Positions 3,442 to 52,610 are shown, numbered from the stretch's first letter. The stretch: 64,000 bases of DNA from an uncultured Bacilli bacterium (GCA_947629325.1 CANRDE010000001.1:4028-68027), one strand, 5' to 3'. The notes: generated by a model not told the origin, from the sequence alone. Program-made: numbers and translations.

Positions 3442-3562
3442 AGTTCACTCCTCCTTTATGTTTATTCATTAATAATTTATGGTTAATATTTTTAAGTGTG
3501 AGTGCTTAATTTATTGTATTTAATTTATTCCTTTGTTATAATAAGATTATTGGGAGGAAAAT

Positions 3563-4585
3563 ATGAAAAAAGGAATTATTTTAGGTATGATATGTCTTCT
3601 AGTCCTTTGTGGGTGTGGAAAAATACCTACTCTAAAAAATGGAGAAGAAGCTGTTGTTACATTTGCTAAAGATAAAAAAGAACATATGATAAGTGCAGAG
3701 TCACTATATGAAGAATTAAAAAATAAATTTGGTTTACAAGCAACAATCAATTTGATTAATACTTATATTTTTGAAACTGAATTTGCTGATTATATTGATA
3801 CTGCTAAACAATCTGCTCAAAGTTATATAGATGCTATGAAACAATCATATGATAGCGAAGAAGCTTTATTAGCTGACATTAGACGATATACTAATTATTC
3901 AACTGTAGAAGCTTACCAAGATTATATGTATTTAACTTTTATGGAATCTCATGCTTTAGAAGAATATGCTAAATCTCAAGTTAGCGATAAAGAAATTGAA
4001 GCTTTTTATAAAGATGAAGCTAAAGGAGATGTTGAAGTTTATCAAATTTTAATCACTCCAGAAGTTAAAGATGATATGACAGCAGATGAGAAAAAGAAAG
4101 CAGAAGAAGAGGCAAAAGCTAAGGCAGAAGAAGTTATTAATAAACTTGATAATGCGGAAGACAAATTAGCAACATTTAAAAAATTAGTTAAAGAATATTC
4201 TAATGATGATAGTACTAAAGATAAAGATGGAAACTTAGGCTTTATCAACTATAATGATTTAGCTTCTAACTACGATGAACTTCTTGATAGTGTTTACAAA
4301 CTAAAAGATGGTGAATATAGTAAAGAAGTAATTACAACTGAACTTGGTTATCATGTTGTATATAGAAATGCCTCTAAAGAAAAAGAATCTTTAGATGATT
4401 TAAAAGAAGAAATAATAGAAACTTTAGCAAATCGAAAAGTACAAAATAATAGCACAATTTCAATAGATTCTTTAAAATATTATAGAGAACTATATAATAT
4501 GAAAATAATTGATTCTACTTTAAATAGTCAATATGGAATTTATATGAATAACTTAATTAATAGTGCTACACAATCACAAGAGTAA
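3563..4585 (+). CDS. prsA: PrsA-like foldase lipoprotein (parvulin-type PPIase domain)
   Basis: Lipoprotein signal MKKGIILGMICLLVLCGCG. C-terminal parvulin-like segment GNLGF...ELGYHVVY. GGAGG RBS upstream. Confidence 0.65.
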   Translation: MKKGIILGMICLLVLCGCGKIPTLKNGEEAVVTFAKDKKEHMISAESLYEELKNKFGLQATINLINTYIFETEFADYIDTAKQSAQSYIDAMKQSYDSEEALLADIRRYTNYSTVEAYQDYMYLTFMESHALEEYAKSQVSDKEIEAFYKDEAKGDVEVYQILITPEVKDDMTADEKKKAEEEAKAKAEEVINKLDNAEDKLATFKKLVKEYSNDDSTKDKDGNLGFINYNDLASNYDELLDSVYKLKDGEYSKEVITTELGYHVVYRNASKEKESLDDLKEEIIETLANRKVQNNSTISIDSLKYYRELYNMKIIDSTLNSQYGIYMNNLINSATQSQE

Positions 4586-5604: not shown

Positions 5605-6345
5605 TCAAGTATTAAAATTAAAACCTTTTTGTCTTAATTTCATTTTTATTCGATATTCTAATTCTTCGCCCTCATACTTTTTACTTAATTTAGTTTTTAA
5701 TTTATTATATTCTTTTTCATAAATTTCTTTATTATCATTAAAATTATATTCCTTTATAATAAAGTTAATATCTTCTTTTAAGAAGCCTTTAGTAATTAAG
5801 TCTTGCATTAACTTATTTTTCAAGCCTAAACCAGATAAATTATGATTGCTACTAATTTTTTTAGTTATGTATTTATTTATTTTATCATACCAAATATCCT
5901 TACTAAAATTGTTCAAATAATTATTTATTTCATTTTCTTTAAAACCTAATTTAATTAATTCAAAAACAATTTTATTTGGCCCTACTAATTTTAAATTTAT
6001 AGCATCATTTACATAACTTTTGATATATAAATTAGAATCTAAATAACCTTCATTCTTTAATTTATTCAAGGTATATTGAATAGCCTCTTTACTAAAGCCA
6101 TTTAATCTTTTTATTATTTCTTTTTCAGTTCTTAATTTAGTGCTTAAAAATTTAAGGGCAATATAATAACTTTCAACATAACTATTATATTGAATAATTT
6201 CAGCTAATTTTGACTCCTCTATTTCTTTAGATAATAAAAGGCCGTATTTTAAAATAACCTCATCATACAAACAAATCTTTTCTTGATTAGATAATGTTAC
6301 TTCATAAATACTACCTTTTTTTTTCTTATAATTACTTATTTTCAT
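5605..6345 (-). CDS. recX: RecX-like regulatory protein
   Basis: Three tandem ~50-aa helical repeats and a C-terminal LRQKGF, as in RecX/YfhG. Confidence 0.55.
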   Translation of the reverse strand: MKISNYKKKKGSIYEVTLSNQEKICLYDEVILKYGLLLSKEIEESKLAEIIQYNSYVESYYIALKFLSTKLRTEKEIIKRLNGFSKEAIQYTLNKLKNEGYLDSNLYIKSYVNDAINLKLVGPNKIVFELIKLGFKENEINNYLNNFSKDIWYDKINKYITKKISSNHNLSGLGLKNKLMQDLITKGFLKEDINFIIKEYNFNDNKEIYEKEYNKLKTKLSKKYEGEELEYRIKMKLRQKGFNFNT

Positions 6346-30745: not shown

Positions 30746-32833
30746 TTATTTTCCTTTCTTTAATCCTTTATAATTTTTTAAAAATTTCTTAATACCAAAT
30801 CTTTTATTAAATGCCACACTGACAAATCGCTCATCAACTTCAACTACTACCCCTCTTCCAAATGATAAATGATTTACAACATCTCCACTATGATAATCCT
30901 CATTATCTTCGCTATATAATAATTCTTTATTTATTTTCTTTTTCTCTTCTGTTTTGGCAATATTTGATTCCAGATATTCATTAGCTATCTCATTAATAAA
31001 ACGAGAAGGCGGATTAATCATATCTTTTCCATAAAGCATTCGAACTTTGGCATTGGTCAAATACAATCTTTCTTTGGCCCTCGTTATACCAACATAACAG
31101 AGTCTTCTTTCTTCCTCAATACCATTTTCTTCATTATAAGCATTAGAATGAGGCATTAAACCTTCTTCCATTCCTACCATAAAAACTACTTTAAATTCTA
31201 ACCCTTTTGCAGAATGAAAAGTCATTAAAGTAATGGTATCAGCATCGGCTTGATGTTCAGTAATATCAGAAATTAAACTAATTTCATCTAAAAAATCCTG
31301 TAAATTAACACTACCGGTTACATTTTGGTAACTTTCGGTAATACTTCTAAATTCCATTAAATTTTCTAATCTTAATTCCCCTTCTAAAGTTTGCTCTTTA
31401 GTAATTTCTTCTTTAATTCCAGTTTTTATTAATACTTCATCAATCAGTTCTGTTAATGATAAAGATTCGGATTCTTTCGTTAATGCTTCAATAATGTTTT
31501 TAAATTCTAATTCTTTGCCTTTATTAATTTTACTATACATAGAAGTATTATCTTCTTTAGCAGCTAATTCAATATTTTCGATAGTCTTAGTGCCAATGCC
31601 TCTTTTAGGCTCATTAATAATACGTTTTAAAGCTATATCATCATCATGATTAGCAATTAACTTTAAATAACTTATTAAATCTTTAATCTCTTTACGTTTA
31701 TAGAAATAAAAACTACCTACTACTTTATAAGGAAAATTATTTTTAATCATTGCTTCTTCATAAATCCGCGACTGAGCATTAGTACGATAAAAAATAGCTA
31801 TATCGCTCTTATTATACCCTAAATTTAATAAATCTTTTATTTCATTTATAACAATATTTACTTCTTGTTGGCCATCATTAGCTCTTAAATATTTAACTTT
31901 TACGCCTTCGCCTAATTCACTATATAAATTAACATCTTTTCTTTCTACGTTATTCTTAATAACAGAATTAGCAGCGTTTAATATATTAGTTGTACTGCGA
32001 TAATTTTGGTTTAACACAATAACATTAGCATCAGGATAATCTTTTTCGAAATTTAAAATATTTTTATAATTGGCTTGCCTAAAACCATAAATGGCTTGAT
32101 TTTGATCTCCGACAACAAAAATATTGCGATATTTTTGACTTAATAATTTTACTAACTTATATTGAACTTCATTGGTGTCTTGATATTCGTCTATTAAAAT
32201 ATATTGATATTTGTCTTGATAATGTTCTAATATATCTTTGTTTTTAATAAATAAATCAACTGGCAACTTTAGTAAATCATCAAAATCAACAACATTATTT
32301 TTCTTTAGTACCTTTTGATATTCATAATAGACTTGCATCGCTATTTTTTCTGGATCAGATAAAAATAATCTCGTTATTTCAGCATCACTTAGCATTTCGT
32401 TTTTAATAAAGCTAATTCGATTACGAATATAAGAAGGCGATGTAATTTTAATATCATAGCCTAAATCTTTCATTATTTTTTTTATTATACTTAAAACATC
32501 TTCGGAATCTAAAATGGTAAAACTTTTAGTTAGCCCTAGAGATTCATAATTTTCTTTAATAATTCTTAAACCAAAAGAATGAAATGTACCAACAAAAGCA
32601 TAATTATCATTAACTATTTTACCAACTCTTTCTTTCATTTCTTTGGCGGCTTTATTAGTAAAAGTAATAGCTAAAATATTACCACTATAAATACCATTAT
32701 CAATTAAATATGCTATTCTAGTTGTTAAAACCTTTGTTTTGCCCGAACCAGCTCCAGCTACTACTAAACAAGGTCCATTAATATGTGTTACAGCTTCTTT
32801 TTGTTCTTTGTTTAAGTTGTTTAAATATTCCAT
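30746..32833 (-). CDS. pcrA: ATP-dependent DNA helicase PcrA/UvrD family
   Basis: Walker A GAGSGKT, DEYQD motif and UvrD helicase motifs. Confidence 0.85.
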   Translation of the reverse strand: MEYLNNLNKEQKEAVTHINGPCLVVAGAGSGKTKVLTTRIAYLIDNGIYSGNILAITFTNKAAKEMKERVGKIVNDNYAFVGTFHSFGLRIIKENYESLGLTKSFTILDSEDVLSIIKKIMKDLGYDIKITSPSYIRNRISFIKNEMLSDAEITRLFLSDPEKIAMQVYYEYQKVLKKNNVVDFDDLLKLPVDLFIKNKDILEHYQDKYQYILIDEYQDTNEVQYKLVKLLSQKYRNIFVVGDQNQAIYGFRQANYKNILNFEKDYPDANVIVLNQNYRSTTNILNAANSVIKNNVERKDVNLYSELGEGVKVKYLRANDGQQEVNIVINEIKDLLNLGYNKSDIAIFYRTNAQSRIYEEAMIKNNFPYKVVGSFYFYKRKEIKDLISYLKLIANHDDDIALKRIINEPKRGIGTKTIENIELAAKEDNTSMYSKINKGKELEFKNIIEALTKESESLSLTELIDEVLIKTGIKEEITKEQTLEGELRLENLMEFRSITESYQNVTGSVNLQDFLDEISLISDITEHQADADTITLMTFHSAKGLEFKVVFMVGMEEGLMPHSNAYNEENGIEEERRLCYVGITRAKERLYLTNAKVRMLYGKDMINPPSRFINEIANEYLESNIAKTEEKKKINKELLYSEDNEDYHSGDVVNHLSFGRGVVVEVDERFVSVAFNKRFGIKKFLKNYKGLKKGK

Positions 32834-34861: not shown

Positions 34862-34938
34862 TGGTGTTCTTGAAGGGAATCGAACCCTTGGCCTTACGCG
34901 TCGGAGGCGTACGCTCTATCCAACTGAGCTACAAGAAC
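34862..34938 (-). tRNA. tRNA-Arg (anticodon CCG)
   Basis: The reverse complement folds as a cloverleaf. Acceptor stem GTTCTTG/CAAGAAC, D-arm AGCTCAGTTGGATAGAGC, anticodon loop CTCCGAC, T-arm GGTTCGATTCC, then ACCA. Confidence 0.9.
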
Positions 34939-48919: not shown

Positions 48920-49105
48920 TTAATTATGATTTCTTTTGTGAGAATTTTTTATGCCTTCTTCTTTCTTAATTCTTCTTTCAACTCCTGGTTTAACATGGAA
49001 TTTTTTCTTTTTTAGTTCTGAAGGGACACCACTTCTCGCAACTTTTACTTTGAATTTTTTCAAAGCCATATCAATGTTGCCATTTTGAACTACAACCTTT
49101 GTCAC
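48920..49105 (-). CDS. rpsU: 30S ribosomal protein S21
   Basis: Basic 61-aa protein matching S21. GTG start with an AAGGGAGGG RBS. Confidence 0.9.
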   Translation of the reverse strand: MTKVVVQNGNIDMALKKFKVKVARSGVPSELKKKKFHVKPGVERRIKKEEGIKNSHKRNHN

Positions 49106-49138
49106 AAATTCGCCCTCCCTTCGCTTTTAACTGAGCCT

Positions 49139-49167
49139 ATTATACCACTTACCTTTAAATTTGACAA
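49139..49167 (-). promoter_or_regulatory. sigma-A-type promoter of rpsU
   Basis: Minus strand reads TTGTCA, 17 nt, TATAAT, about 35 nt upstream of the rpsU RBS. Confidence 0.55.
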
Positions 49168-49213
49168 CAACAAAAGCAATCATCTGTAAAAAATGTTGTA
49201 AATTAACGATTAA

Positions 49214-49366
49214 TTAACAATAATTTTTGGCAGCAATTCTTCTGATTGCACTTCCAACCGTTTTGCCTAAATCAAGAATTGTATTTATAAGTCTTGAAAC
49301 TGAATTTAATAAGGTTGAAGAAATCCCTCCACCTTGAATCAATAATAATTCTTCGTTTGTTAACAT
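49214..49366 (-). CDS. double-glycine-leader bacteriocin precursor peptide B (50 aa)
   Basis: Unlisted ORF MLTNEELLLIQGG|GISSTLLNSVSRLINTILDLGKTVGSAIRRIAAKNYC. The leader fits the LSxxELxxIxGG consensus (-12 L, -8 E, -7 L, -4 I, GG). AGGAGGT RBS. The mature peptide has a GxxxG motif and a C-terminal Cys. Confidence 0.7.
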   Translation of the reverse strand: MLTNEELLLIQGGGISSTLLNSVSRLINTILDLGKTVGSAIRRIAAKNYC

Positions 49367-49376
49367 TTTAACCTCC

Positions 49377-49520
49377 TTAATTACATTTTTTAGGATTAAT
49401 TATGCCGTCAATCACGCCAATAACAAAAACTGCGGCTGCTCCTATAATACCAGCAATCAATTTTAAACTAACTGCGCCACCTTCTACTGCTAACATTTCT
49501 TCATTATTTAAAATTTTCAT
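49377..49520 (-). CDS. double-glycine-leader bacteriocin precursor peptide A (47 aa)
   Basis: Unlisted ORF MKILNNEEMLAVEGG|AVSLKLIAGIIGAAAVFVIGVIDGIINPKKCN with an AGGAGG RBS. The mature peptide is hydrophobic, carries GxxxG motifs and has a C-terminal Cys. Confidence 0.7.
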   Translation of the reverse strand: MKILNNEEMLAVEGGAVSLKLIAGIIGAAAVFVIGVIDGIINPKKCN

Positions 49521-49531
49521 TATTACCTCCT

Positions 49532-49945
49532 CTATTTAAATAACTCTAAAATAAATTGCCAAATAGTTTGTTTACCATAATAAATTTCCACATCTCCTAT
49601 TTCATTATTATAAAAATCTTTTTCTAAAACTAAAAATATATCTTGATAGATAATATTTTTATCTAAACTATATTTTTCATATGAGTTAATGGTATACTCT
49701 GTTTTAGTACCATTGAAAGTCAAAGTATTTTGTTTTTTTATTTTATCAGAGAGTCTATTTTCTATTTGTATATGTAATAAATGACTTTCATAAATTCCAT
49801 AACATTTAATCTTTTTATCAATATAAAAGAAGTTGGCAATCACAATGAAGAAAACAATAAATGAAACTCCTATTACTAAAAGATAAATATATGGCCTTTG
49901 AACTAAATTTCTAAGTTTATAATAATTAATTTTGAAGTATTCCAT
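49532..49945 (-). CDS. small single-TM protein (137 aa); candidate immunity or truncated secretion-accessory protein
   Basis: N-terminal TM helix YIYLLVIGVSFIVFFIVIANFFYI. Overlaps the 3' end of the ABC transporter and sits directly upstream of the two peptide genes. Confidence 0.45.
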   Translation of the reverse strand: MEYFKINYYKLRNLVQRPYIYLLVIGVSFIVFFIVIANFFYIDKKIKCYGIYESHLLHIQIENRLSDKIKKQNTLTFNGTKTEYTINSYEKYSLDKNIIYQDIFLVLEKDFYNNEIGDVEIYYGKQTIWQFILELFK

Positions 49946-51986
49946 TTTGAACTCCTATGTCAATAATTTTGCTAAAACTTTTAGTTTGATTTTTATGAGA
50001 AATATAAATTATTGTTTTATCATTAAAATAATTTTTTATATTTTTTATGATCTTGTTTTCTAATTTAAAATCCACTTCACTTAACGCTTCATCCAAAATA
50101 ATAATATTGGCTTTCTTTAAAAGGCCTCTGGCTAAAATTATTCTTTGTTTTTCGCCACCTGAAACGTTCTGAGAATTTGGTTCAAGCAAAGAATTAAAAC
50201 GAAGTGTTTTTTTAGCTACAATCTCCTCAATACAGCAAATTTGACATATATCATTAAACAATTGCTCTTCAACTTCTCTATCAATTAAAATGTTTTCTTT
50301 GATAGTTCCAGTAAAAAGTTCTTCATTTTGGGATACATATAAAATATTATTTCTGATTGTTCCTATATCTATATCTTTGATGTTTTGATTACCAATATAT
50401 ATCTCCCCTTCATTTGAAACATATTCCTTATAAATTAGTTTACAAATGGTACTTTTTCCCGCTCCAGAAGGTCCATTTAACAAAACATGATCTCCCTGTT
50501 TGATTTGCAAAGTCAAATTTTTTAATATGCTTTTATAATTATTATATGAATAGTAGACATTAGCAAAAACAATATCACCATCTAAATAACATCCTTTATC
50601 ATCAATATTTTCTTCTTCAATATTTATAAATTCGGTTAACTTTGTAAAAGTTGCTTTAATAAAATTATATTTAGGTAACAAGCTAATAATATTACGCACA
50701 GGATCAATACAATAACCAAGAATAATATTAAATGTGAATAAATCAATGATAGATAAATTGCCTTGATAAATATTCCAAAACCCACAAGAATTAATCAAAA
50801 AGAAACAAAGTTCTAATAAGAAATCTTTACCTAAATTGGTTAGGTTGAAATATTTATTAAAATTATAAGTATTAAATAAGTATTTAGATAAACACTTTTC
50901 TATTTTTTCTAATATAATGTTATTTATATTTAAATTTTTAATACTATCTAACATCGTAATGTCTTCTACTATCATACTATTAAAATTGGTTTGATAATTA
51001 ATATTTTCTAAAATTCTTTGATATAAACTCTTACTAACCAAAAAACCATATAAAACGTATAAAACAATAAAGAGAAATAAAATAAAAGACAAGTTTTTAT
51101 TTATTATAAATAAAATAACTACAGTTATAAGTATCATTAAAGAGTTTACAAGATAAGAAACAAATATTTCGGAAAACAAGCTTTTTATATTAGCTAATTC
51201 ATCAATCCTTGTTACTATTTCTCCTACACTTCTTGTCTTGATACTATTAGAAGGAAGGTAAAAAATATGATGTAAAAACTCTGGATACAAATAAACATCA
51301 ATTAAATTACCCAAATGATTTTCATAATATTCTCGAATATATAAACTTAAAATTTTTAATAAAGTAAATATTGCAAATATTAAAATGAGCCATTTAAAAT
51401 ATTTATAATTTTCATTTAATAAATTGCTTCCTACTTTCAAATAATAACTACAAATTATAGCGATAATAGTCCAAATTATACTACTCATAACTATTTTCAT
51501 TATTAGAAACTTTTCCTGATTTAATATTTGTAAAAATAAGTTATTTATAGTAAGACCTTTGTCCATTTTAATAATTTTACCACGCGGTTTTACTAAAATA
51601 AGATGACCAGTAAATAAACTATTAAAAATAGTTAAAGATATTTTTTTATTTCCAACACTTGGATCCATTAAATATACAATGTTGTTTTTTACCTCTTTAA
51701 CTACAACAAAATGTTCTAAACCATTCTCTAAAGTTAAATGAGCTATTAAAGGAAATTCCAATTCACTTTTTGTAATGTCGCGCTCCAAAATCCCCAATGA
51801 ATCAAATCCCCATTTTTTAAAAGCATTTACAATATGGTAAGCATTAGTTCCATTTTTATCGGTAAAAGTATCTTCTCTTAATTTTTCTAGAGTCACATAA
51901 CCATTATAAAAAATAAATAACCATTGCATACAACATATACCACAATCTTTCAAATCTTTTTGTATAACAGGTTTAACTTTCATCAT
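49926..51986 (-). CDS. bacteriocin-processing ABC transporter with N-terminal C39 peptidase domain
   Basis: C39 catalytic motifs QKDLKDCGICC (Cys), LEHFVVV (His) and LMDP (Asp). Six-TM domain. Walker A GPSGAGKST, signature VSGGEKQR and Walker B IIILDE. Confidence 0.9.
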   Translation of the reverse strand: MMKVKPVIQKDLKDCGICCMQWLFIFYNGYVTLEKLREDTFTDKNGTNAYHIVNAFKKWGFDSLGILERDITKSELEFPLIAHLTLENGLEHFVVVKEVKNNIVYLMDPSVGNKKISLTIFNSLFTGHLILVKPRGKIIKMDKGLTINNLFLQILNQEKFLIMKIVMSSIIWTIIAIICSYYLKVGSNLLNENYKYFKWLILIFAIFTLLKILSLYIREYYENHLGNLIDVYLYPEFLHHIFYLPSNSIKTRSVGEIVTRIDELANIKSLFSEIFVSYLVNSLMILITVVILFIINKNLSFILFLFIVLYVLYGFLVSKSLYQRILENINYQTNFNSMIVEDITMLDSIKNLNINNIILEKIEKCLSKYLFNTYNFNKYFNLTNLGKDFLLELCFFLINSCGFWNIYQGNLSIIDLFTFNIILGYCIDPVRNIISLLPKYNFIKATFTKLTEFINIEEENIDDKGCYLDGDIVFANVYYSYNNYKSILKNLTLQIKQGDHVLLNGPSGAGKSTICKLIYKEYVSNEGEIYIGNQNIKDIDIGTIRNNILYVSQNEELFTGTIKENILIDREVEEQLFNDICQICCIEEIVAKKTLRFNSLLEPNSQNVSGGEKQRIILARGLLKKANIIILDEALSEVDFKLENKIIKNIKNYFNDKTIIYISHKNQTKSFSKIIDIGVQNGILQN

Positions 51987-52115: not shown

Positions 52116-52610
52116 ATGATAAACAAACAAAATTTATGGTTTATTACTTTATTTTCTTTAATACTTATCTTAGGAATTTATTATATTAGTATTGATGATG
52201 AGGTGGCAAGTGTGCTTAAAGCCGAAGATACTTCTAATGCCAATGAAGTTATTGAGATTAATGAATCTGATGTATTAGTGGCCTTAGAAATAGAAAATGA
52301 CGAGGAAAAGCAAGCCCTTATGGAAGAATATCAAAATATCCTTTTAGACACGGGAAGTACTTTAGAGGAAAAAAATGTTGCTTATGAAAATATGCAAAAA
52401 TTAAATAATTCCAAAGCCGAAGAAACTAAAGTGAAAAAATTAATTAAAGAAAAATTTGATTTAAATTCTTTTGTAAAAATTAAAGATAATACAATTAGTA
52501 TTACGGTGGCTTCAAAGGAACACAATACGGAAAAAGCTAATTCTATTATCCGAAGTGTGCAAGAATTATATGAATCAAAAATGTATATAACAGTAAAATT
52601 TAATAAATAA
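52116..52610 (+). CDS. SpoIIIAH-like membrane protein (tentative)
   Basis: N-terminal TM helix, an acidic linker, and a C-terminal segment NTISITVASKEHNTEKANSIIRSVQ that resembles the SpoIIIAH/YscJ-like ring-building domain. Confidence 0.4.
   Translation: MINKQNLWFITLFSLILILGIYYISIDDEVASVLKAEDTSNANEVIEINESDVLVALEIENDEEKQALMEEYQNILLDTGSTLEEKNVAYENMQKLNNSKAEETKVKKLIKEKFDLNSFVKIKDNTISITVASKEHNTEKANSIIRSVQELYESKMYITVKFNK

Follow-up and report, generated by a model that had tools for sequence, protein, structure and literature searches.

Why should both peptides of what looks like a two-peptide bacteriocin carry a single cysteine at the extreme C-terminus? The question is raised by a short interval of the window, by which we mean the whole stretch of 64,000 nucleotides analysed here, from an uncultured Bacilli bacterium. 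Positions 49214..49520 are made up of exactly two minus-strand ORFs, pepA and pepB, with the following parts.

49377..49520, minus strand: pepA precursor, 47 aa, MKILNNEEMLAVEGG (leader) then AVSLKLIAGIIGAAAVFVIGVIDGIINPKKCN (mature)
49476..49520, minus strand: Gly-Gly leader of pepA, 15 aa
49380..49475, minus strand: mature pepA peptide, 32 aa, hydrophobic and TM-like
49383..49385, minus strand: codon TGT of pepA Cys46, the second-to-last residue, in the tail …NPKKCN
49214..49366, minus strand: pepB precursor, 50 aa, MLTNEELLLIQGG (leader) then GISSTLLNSVSRLINTILDLGKTVGSAIRRIAAKNYC (mature)
49328..49366, minus strand: Gly-Gly leader of pepB, 13 aa
49217..49327, minus strand: mature pepB peptide, 37 aa, cationic and amphipathic
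49217..49219, minus strand: codon TGT of pepB Cys50, the last residue, directly before the stop, in the tail …AKNYC

There is exactly one Cys in each precursor. The preliminary description had placed one Cys in each peptide at 1-2 residues from the C-terminus, and the ORF translations agree with it in every detail. Cys accounts for 1.08 % of the residues in those window ORFs that reach 150 aa or more, and the naive probability of finding a single Cys within the last two residues of both mature peptides is about 2e-4; placement by chance is ruled out by this figure together with the invariant Cys columns described below. Mature pepA contains the motif G35xxxG39-x6-C46 with Pro43, and it has a mean hydrophobicity of ~0.8, a helical moment of ~0.2 and a net charge of ~+2. 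Mature pepB contains G34xxxG38, a GSAIRR motif and the C-terminal Cys50, with a helical hydrophobic moment of 0.6-0.69 along the whole peptide and a net charge of ~+4. Both leaders are hydrophobic at -4, -7 and -12 and have Glu at -8, and a strong Shine-Dalgarno site (GGAGG) precedes both genes.

The peptide genes belong to a compact operon, the remaining elements of which, together with the gene that follows it, are these.

52180..52209, minus strand: sigma-70-like promoter candidate TTGCCA-18-TATAAT, 11/12 consensus matches, upstream of the ABC gene
49926..51986, minus strand: peptidase-containing ABC exporter (PCAT), 686 aa, N-terminal C39, then ABC membrane and ATPase domains
49532..49945, minus strand: 137-aa single-TM protein, in 20-nt overlap with the ABC gene
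48920..49105: rpsU, with its own promoter-like site

The gene order is ABC/C39, 137-aa protein, pepA and pepB, with neighbours that overlap or lie 10-11 nt apart (10 nt between pepA and pepB, on one strand), and the promoter candidate is likely that of the operon. The exporter matches the Pfam families Peptidase_C39 (E 4e-29), ABC_membrane (3.2e-26) and ABC_tran (2.5e-27), its catalytic set Q9, C15, H92 and D108 is readable in the translation, and orthologues are present at every related locus; its predicted role is the removal of the Gly-Gly leaders and the export of pepA and pepB. The 137-aa protein has no match in Pfam or NCBIfam, nor in the PDB sequences by profile search, and its single-sequence AF2 model is unreliable (pLDDT 52.8). 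All rpsU-linked loci have a counterpart of 130-156 aa in this place, between exporter gene and pepA; the distant locus type L045 lacks it. Within this family M1 and Y100 are the only invariant residues, and none of a catalytic type is conserved. We regard the protein as a candidate transport accessory and/or immunity protein; a possible resemblance to a truncated HlyD-type accessory protein gained no support from Pfam, NCBIfam or the PDB profile search, and that assignment was set aside.

Downstream, a spacer of 108 nt (49106..49213) runs from the pepB stop to the rpsU start and holds a strong promoter-like site, TTGTCA-17-TGnTATAAT, at 49167..49139. No terminator-like site or hairpin was found between pepB and rpsU, so that the peptide operon may read through into rpsU. 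In the window there is no ORF between these two genes and no recognisable immunity gene. Elsewhere in the window, and unrelated to the peptides, a gathering-level Rfam match (RF03531, n00280, 70.6 bits, titled 'Clostridioides difficile sRNA included into helicase gene') lies at 31046..31147 on the minus strand, and one tRNA at 34865..34938, also on the minus strand.

Is the pair then a class IIb bacteriocin? Among the defining features of that class as listed in a review (PMC2850506), the locus shows neighbouring genes for two different peptides in a single operon, Gly-Gly leaders together with a C39-ABC exporter that carries the Q/C/H/D residues (cleavage being predicted), and GxxxG in both peptides, where G35xxxG39 is invariant in pepA and G34 in pepB. 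What it has in common with lactococcin G, plantaricin EF/JK/S and enterocin 1071 extends to the length of the leaders (~13-15 residues), the small accessory-type gene and the cationic nature of the 32- and 37-residue peptides (PMC2850506). The initial assignment to class IIb-type peptides with GxxxG motifs is thus borne out by the operon, the Pfam exporter and the pepA and pepB alignments. Curated families, however, were reached only below their cutoffs: pepA scores 21.9 vs 27.1 bits with Pfam PF10439 (Bacteriocin_IIc), 18.6 vs 21.5 with NCBIfam TIGR03949 (lactobin A/cerein 7B) and 22.4 vs 37 with NF038034 (lactococcin G-beta/enterocin 1071B), the last over residues 4-41 and hence into the mature region. 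With scores of 23.1 and 21.9, two distant pepA relatives (P0061 and P0065) narrowly exceed the TIGR03949 cutoff. For pepB there is no Pfam match, and its NCBIfam scores, at most 14.8 bits, are weak ones in the leader region. No curated family in Pfam or NCBIfam thus matches mature pepA or pepB above threshold, and the profile search of PDB sequences returned nothing relevant but a weak leader-region match to the PCAT1 substrate CtA (E 0.22).

Among species-representative genomes, a scan recovered the pair from 15 MAGs of uncultured gut and rumen bacteria, labelled Bacilli, Erysipelotrichaceae, 'Tenericutes', Firmicutes CAG:321 or Clostridium sp. In 13 of the 15, rpsU-yqeY follows directly on the cassette, and the same holds for the metagenome contigs of the pepB matches P0006, P0007, P0088, P0113, P0194 and P0209. 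The rpsU-linked loci are that of the window (48920..51986) and L001-L012, L018-L026, L028-L031, L033, L036-L038, L040 and L041; the position is kept even in lineages with just 34-44 % identity to the window in the ABC protein and 38-76 % in rpsU. Housekeeping genes (fmt, spoIIIAH, rpsU, yqeY, yqfC and yqfD) flank the cassette, GC is ~0.25 in cassette and flanks alike, and no plasmid homologues were found. The rpsU position is apparently core-genome-like and vertically inherited, and a fixed position of this kind is unusual for a bacteriocin locus. Off rpsU are L027 and L032, with ftsA downstream, and the L042 and L045 types. The more distant pairs, L042 and L045, retain both Cys, with the tails …GVIDGIARPKKCNG and …RRIATGNTCPL in L042 and …GYVRPLRCRS and …RRVKDKNVCK in L045, and the pairing of pepA with pepB is conserved in all 25+ related loci.

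Copy number varies at some loci. L019 has an extra pepA-like gene (5851-5991, …GFIKGYKKAPRCP), and L040 has two complete pairs (3556-4141), one with both Cys and one without; judged from sequence, these duplicates look like bacteriocin-style paralogue turnover. In P0144, a 101-aa gene call, one ORF spans a pepA-like and a pepB-like peptide.

A chromosomal site that is fixed upstream of rpsU-yqeY even in divergent lineages, with matching GC and no plasmid homologues, would also suit a conserved physiological or signalling pair that is not a weapon at all, for example a surface or membrane heterodimer or a cell-cell signal whose Cys serve the assembly of the complex. Most lineages lack a kinase or regulator as well as a recognisable immunity gene, which points the same way; a receptor kinase nearby, however, is likewise missing, and the combination of a hydrophobic and an amphipathic cationic peptide with GxxxG is the design of pore-forming two-peptide bacteriocins. 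Paralogue turnover (the extra pepA of L019 and the second pair of L040), the tolerance of pepA to disruption by a mobile element and the presence of distant family members in other contexts also speak against a purely physiological role, and we consider it quite improbable. The narrower proposal that pepB is an induction pheromone was rejected, as no kinase or regulator is nearby and pepB, 37 aa long when mature and with an invariant GxxxG, is accompanied by pepA in every case.

How far the two Cys are conserved could be read from the families. Searches with single sequences gave few relatives only, whereas profiles opened both families: the pepA profile search returned 61 proteins, and the pepB profile, run with full HMMER against 1.84 billion representatives (E ≤ 1e-3), gave at least 303 clusters at 50 % identity. 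The alignment with homologues that the preliminary description had proposed as a check left the Cys invariant in both peptides. The 42 aligned pepA homologues share the Gly-Gly site, F32, G35, G39, P43 and C46 as invariant columns; in the 74 diverse pepB homologues these are only G12, G13, G34 and C50, G38 being kept in at least 90 % of these sequences. The Cys is therefore as well conserved as the Gly-Gly cleavage site in both alignments. Its spacing is strict as well, with GxxxG-x6-C in 76 of 81 distinct pepA and GxxxG-x11-C, that is, Cys 12 residues past the second Gly, in 138 of 149 pepB. Four of the five pepA that depart from this spacing appear to owe it to a mobile element (see below). 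Exactly one Cys is present in 74 of the 81 mature pepA, and exactly one downstream of the GxxxG motif in 141 of the 149 pepB. With one Cys per chain an intramolecular disulfide is impossible, which leaves only a link between chains or a free thiol. A search of the metagenome collection with P0209 as query gave no match.

The Cys of pepB is followed by no residue in 50 of the 149 sequences, by one in 26, two in 45, three in 23 and four in 3. In a close clade (P0004-P0007, P0068; L009, L018, L020) the tails read CKLS, CKIS, CSIN, CKIN, CKMS or CKLQ after basic residues, a superficial resemblance to the eukaryotic polybasic-plus-CaaX prenylation signal. As a feature of the family a CaaX-like tail was rejected, since a three-residue tail is confined to those 23 and the Cys is the last residue of the window pepB.

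Homologues without the Cys, which the preliminary description had named as what would speak against its reading, turned out to be limited to disrupted pepA genes, fragments arising from truncation or frameshift, and two pairs with joint loss of both Cys. Four Cys-less pepA matches (P0041, P0046, P0048 and P0058) end in GQIKLK or GHINLK. At the loci of P0041 and P0046 a mobile element with genes for ParA, HTH_36/HTH_3 proteins and a DNA methylase sits in pepA right after a (D/N)G codon, so that at least these two are disrupted genes and were rejected as natural variants. The insertion sites (L013 3001-3132, L014-L016 and L017 1820-1954) fall in at least two pepA lineages; the junction CA[AT]ATCAA[GC]CTCAAATGACA is conserved, and pepA may therefore be a specific integration site. 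In L032 (6062-6230) pepB has no in-frame start, and a short ATG ORF, MKKYKKIKKK*, enters an A-rich stretch out of frame; probably the assembly has a frameshift here, or the gene is a pseudogene.

Intact pepB without Cys numbered two among the 156 sequences examined, namely L041 and the second pair of L040. The L040 operon has two pairs. Its first pair has both Cys (…NPTYCKTKN and …RRLISNTICPM), whereas in the second pepB ends …GKQIKRLFG and pepA ends …GVFCGFFE, without the PxxC tail. In L041 pepB ends …IRKIVYKLKR, and the 3' end of the preceding pepA, …AIYGFFNN*, also lacks the PxxC tail. Over all loci there are 25 distinct Cys/Cys pairs, two without both and none mixed (Fisher p ~0.003, a naive value in which loci are treated as independent of phylogeny). 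A search with the alignment of tail-less pepA gave one extra locus only, L048, which is a Cys/Cys pair. Loss in both partners at once speaks for a coupling between the two Cys rather than against one. The pepA ends of the two cases are alike (GFFE and GFFNN), and since they may go back to a single evolutionary event, the co-loss evidence is suggestive, not conclusive.

Joint loss would be equally expected if both Cys served one shared external partner, be it an enzyme, a receptor or a metal, and it therefore bears on a second explanation, that each Cys is the attachment site for an enzymatic modification (S-glycosylation, lipidation or thioether formation) by an enzyme encoded elsewhere in the genome. 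Glycocins offer a precedent, as they are S-glycosylated on a C-terminal Cys; their clusters include a glycosyltransferase gene, and their peptides have two nested disulfides. The CaaX-like tails CKLS, CKIS and CSIN of some pepB relatives also point to modification, but, as seen above, such tails do not characterise the family. In more than 20 lineages the cassette has no conserved gene for a modification enzyme, a thioredoxin-like protein or a regulator, and in particular no glycosyltransferase, LanM/LanB, radical-SAM or prenyltransferase gene was found in or beside it, nor would the 137-aa protein, with no conserved residues of a catalytic type, take this part. We give a modification very little credence. 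Two specific forms were rejected: a glycocin, there being no glycosyltransferase in the cassette or the conserved flanks and one Cys per peptide, and a class II lanthipeptide, there being no LanM-sized gene near the cassette at any locus and a single Cys in each peptide. The reading with which the analysis started had left open a disulfide or a lipid or other modification. What stands of it is the coupling of the two Cys, as invariance, spacing and co-loss suggest; the second alternative is weakened, because the conserved cassette has no enzyme for it.

In four lineages (L027, L032, L033 and L042) a further ORF of 55-58 aa is present downstream of pepB, at the following positions; the window has none.

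L033, 2645-2821: leaderless third ORF
L027, 6301-6468: leaderless third ORF
L032, 6223-6396: leaderless third ORF
L042, 726-893: leaderless third ORF

It has no leader, begins with a TM helix and ends with a GxxxG and then a terminal Cys, and its last 30 residues align to the last 30 of pepB, Cys on Cys (hhalign probability 93.5 %, E 2.2e-7). By analogy it is a candidate immunity protein that would mimic pepB, in parallel to the toxin mimicry proposed as the mechanism of the gallocin immunity peptide GIP (PMC10100652).

The third ORF also helps to weigh a last explanation, in which pepA and pepB pair non-covalently, as class IIb peptides do, and the Cys of each has to be a free, reduced thiol for receptor contact, metal bridging or a redox switch, oxidation inactivating the toxin in the switch version. 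Lactococcin B is the precedent: this class IId, unmodified Gly-Gly-leader bacteriocin has exactly one Cys, is reportedly thiol-activated, and its activity is controlled by the redox state. It differs from pepA and pepB in that it is a one-peptide bacteriocin with an internal Cys and its reduced form is active. The hosts of the pair are gut and rumen MAGs of a strict-anaerobe type, and the cassette has no oxidoreductase, for which reasons the thiols might act reduced or bridge a metal. Moreover, an invariant GxxxG in both peptides suffices for non-covalent pairing in known class IIb bacteriocins (PMC2850506). Independent thiol functions do not predict, however, that both Cys tails are lost together or that the distance between Cys and GxxxG is strict in both partners, and the Cys retained by the leaderless paralogue of the pepB module is better explained by capture of the partner. 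Overall, free thiols seem to us unlikely.

The best explanation, in our view, is that pepA and pepB are an exported, class-IIb-like, membrane-active pair with linked C-termini, the link being most simply a disulfide; we put it forward tentatively, as a little short of an even chance. It draws on the hydrophobic-plus-amphipathic design, the invariant Cys, the fixed spacing, the co-loss and the lack of a cassette enzyme. Its parts differ in strength, for the functional coupling of the pepA and pepB Cys appears well supported by the sequences, disulfide chemistry between them is plausible, and an antimicrobial activity is what we infer for the pair. The exporter would cut the Gly-Gly leaders to give the hydrophobic, TM-like 32-mer of pepA and the cationic amphipathic 37-mer of pepB, and the GxxxG helix-packing motif in each would allow the two to pack in parallel. 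The pepA Cys lies 7 residues past GxxxG, after a helix-breaking Pro, and that of pepB 12 helical residues past GxxxG, with basic residues flanking the Cys in both. A C-terminal interchain disulfide could tie the parallel-packed chains into a covalent 1:1 heterodimer, for which the predicted average mass is 7096.4 Da vs 3178.9 and 3919.6 Da for the free peptides.

Some considerations weigh against the disulfide. From geometry, with the GxxxG motifs in register the two Cys would be 5 residues out of register unless the pepA tail is extended; we estimate that a pepA tail partly extended past Pro43 and a helical pepB tail would have a similar span. In the low-redox habitat of gut and rumen an exposed disulfide may not form or persist. 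A thiol-disulfide oxidoreductase was found neither in the cassette nor, by a non-exhaustive scan for CxxC motifs, in the window. The fuller reading of an unnamed, vertically inherited family that has a C-terminal interchain disulfide, and in which a leaderless, membrane-anchored copy of the pepB Cys module protects some lineages by capturing pepA, is possible, but we would sooner doubt than assert it as a whole.

Two-peptide bacteriocins are the textbook case of non-covalent helix pairing through GxxxG, and a covalent tie would add a structural principle to it; were the disulfide reading true, this would be the first covalently heterodimeric class II bacteriocin. Such a tie would fix a 1:1 stoichiometry, could raise protease resistance, as has been argued for distinctin, could serve as a built-in redox switch and would offer engineers of heterodimeric antimicrobials a template from nature. 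The family is large, uncharacterised and so far unnamed, and since it is abundant in uncultured gut and rumen Bacilli and holds a core-genome-like position, it may matter for the ecology of the clade.

Set beside known systems, the pair differs from class IIb in the lone invariant Cys near the C-terminus of both peptides, set at a fixed spacing; in the window, moreover, the peptide genes are not followed by an immunity gene, and the locus is chromosomal and fixed beside rpsU across a deep clade. The single Cys per chain, invariant, fixed in position and jointly lost, is a trait without a described counterpart in class IIb, and one invariant Cys per chain together with co-loss suggests a departure from the non-covalent association of that class. 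That the pattern is unusual for class IIb, as had been noted at the outset, agrees with the review text, in which cysteine is mentioned 0 times (PMC2850506). A literature search for two-peptide bacteriocins with an interchain disulfide found no precedent, and PMC10059821 states that there is no report of single cysteines forming a disulfide in bacteriocins. Gallocin-type two-peptide bacteriocins likewise have Gly-Gly leaders and functionally essential Cys (PMC10100652). Their peptides, however, have two Cys each, which form an intramolecular disulfide within a helical hairpin, whereas pepA and pepB have one Cys per chain. In the frog peptide distinctin the Cys lie near the C-termini, in basic contexts. 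Distinctin is built of two different short helices, both membrane-active, with one disulfide between the chains, and it was described in 2017 as the only natural heterodimer published (PMC5244374). It comes from an animal, shares no sequence homology with pepA and pepB and is not exported by a Gly-Gly-leader/ABC system, so that its likeness to the pair is one of functional analogy only.
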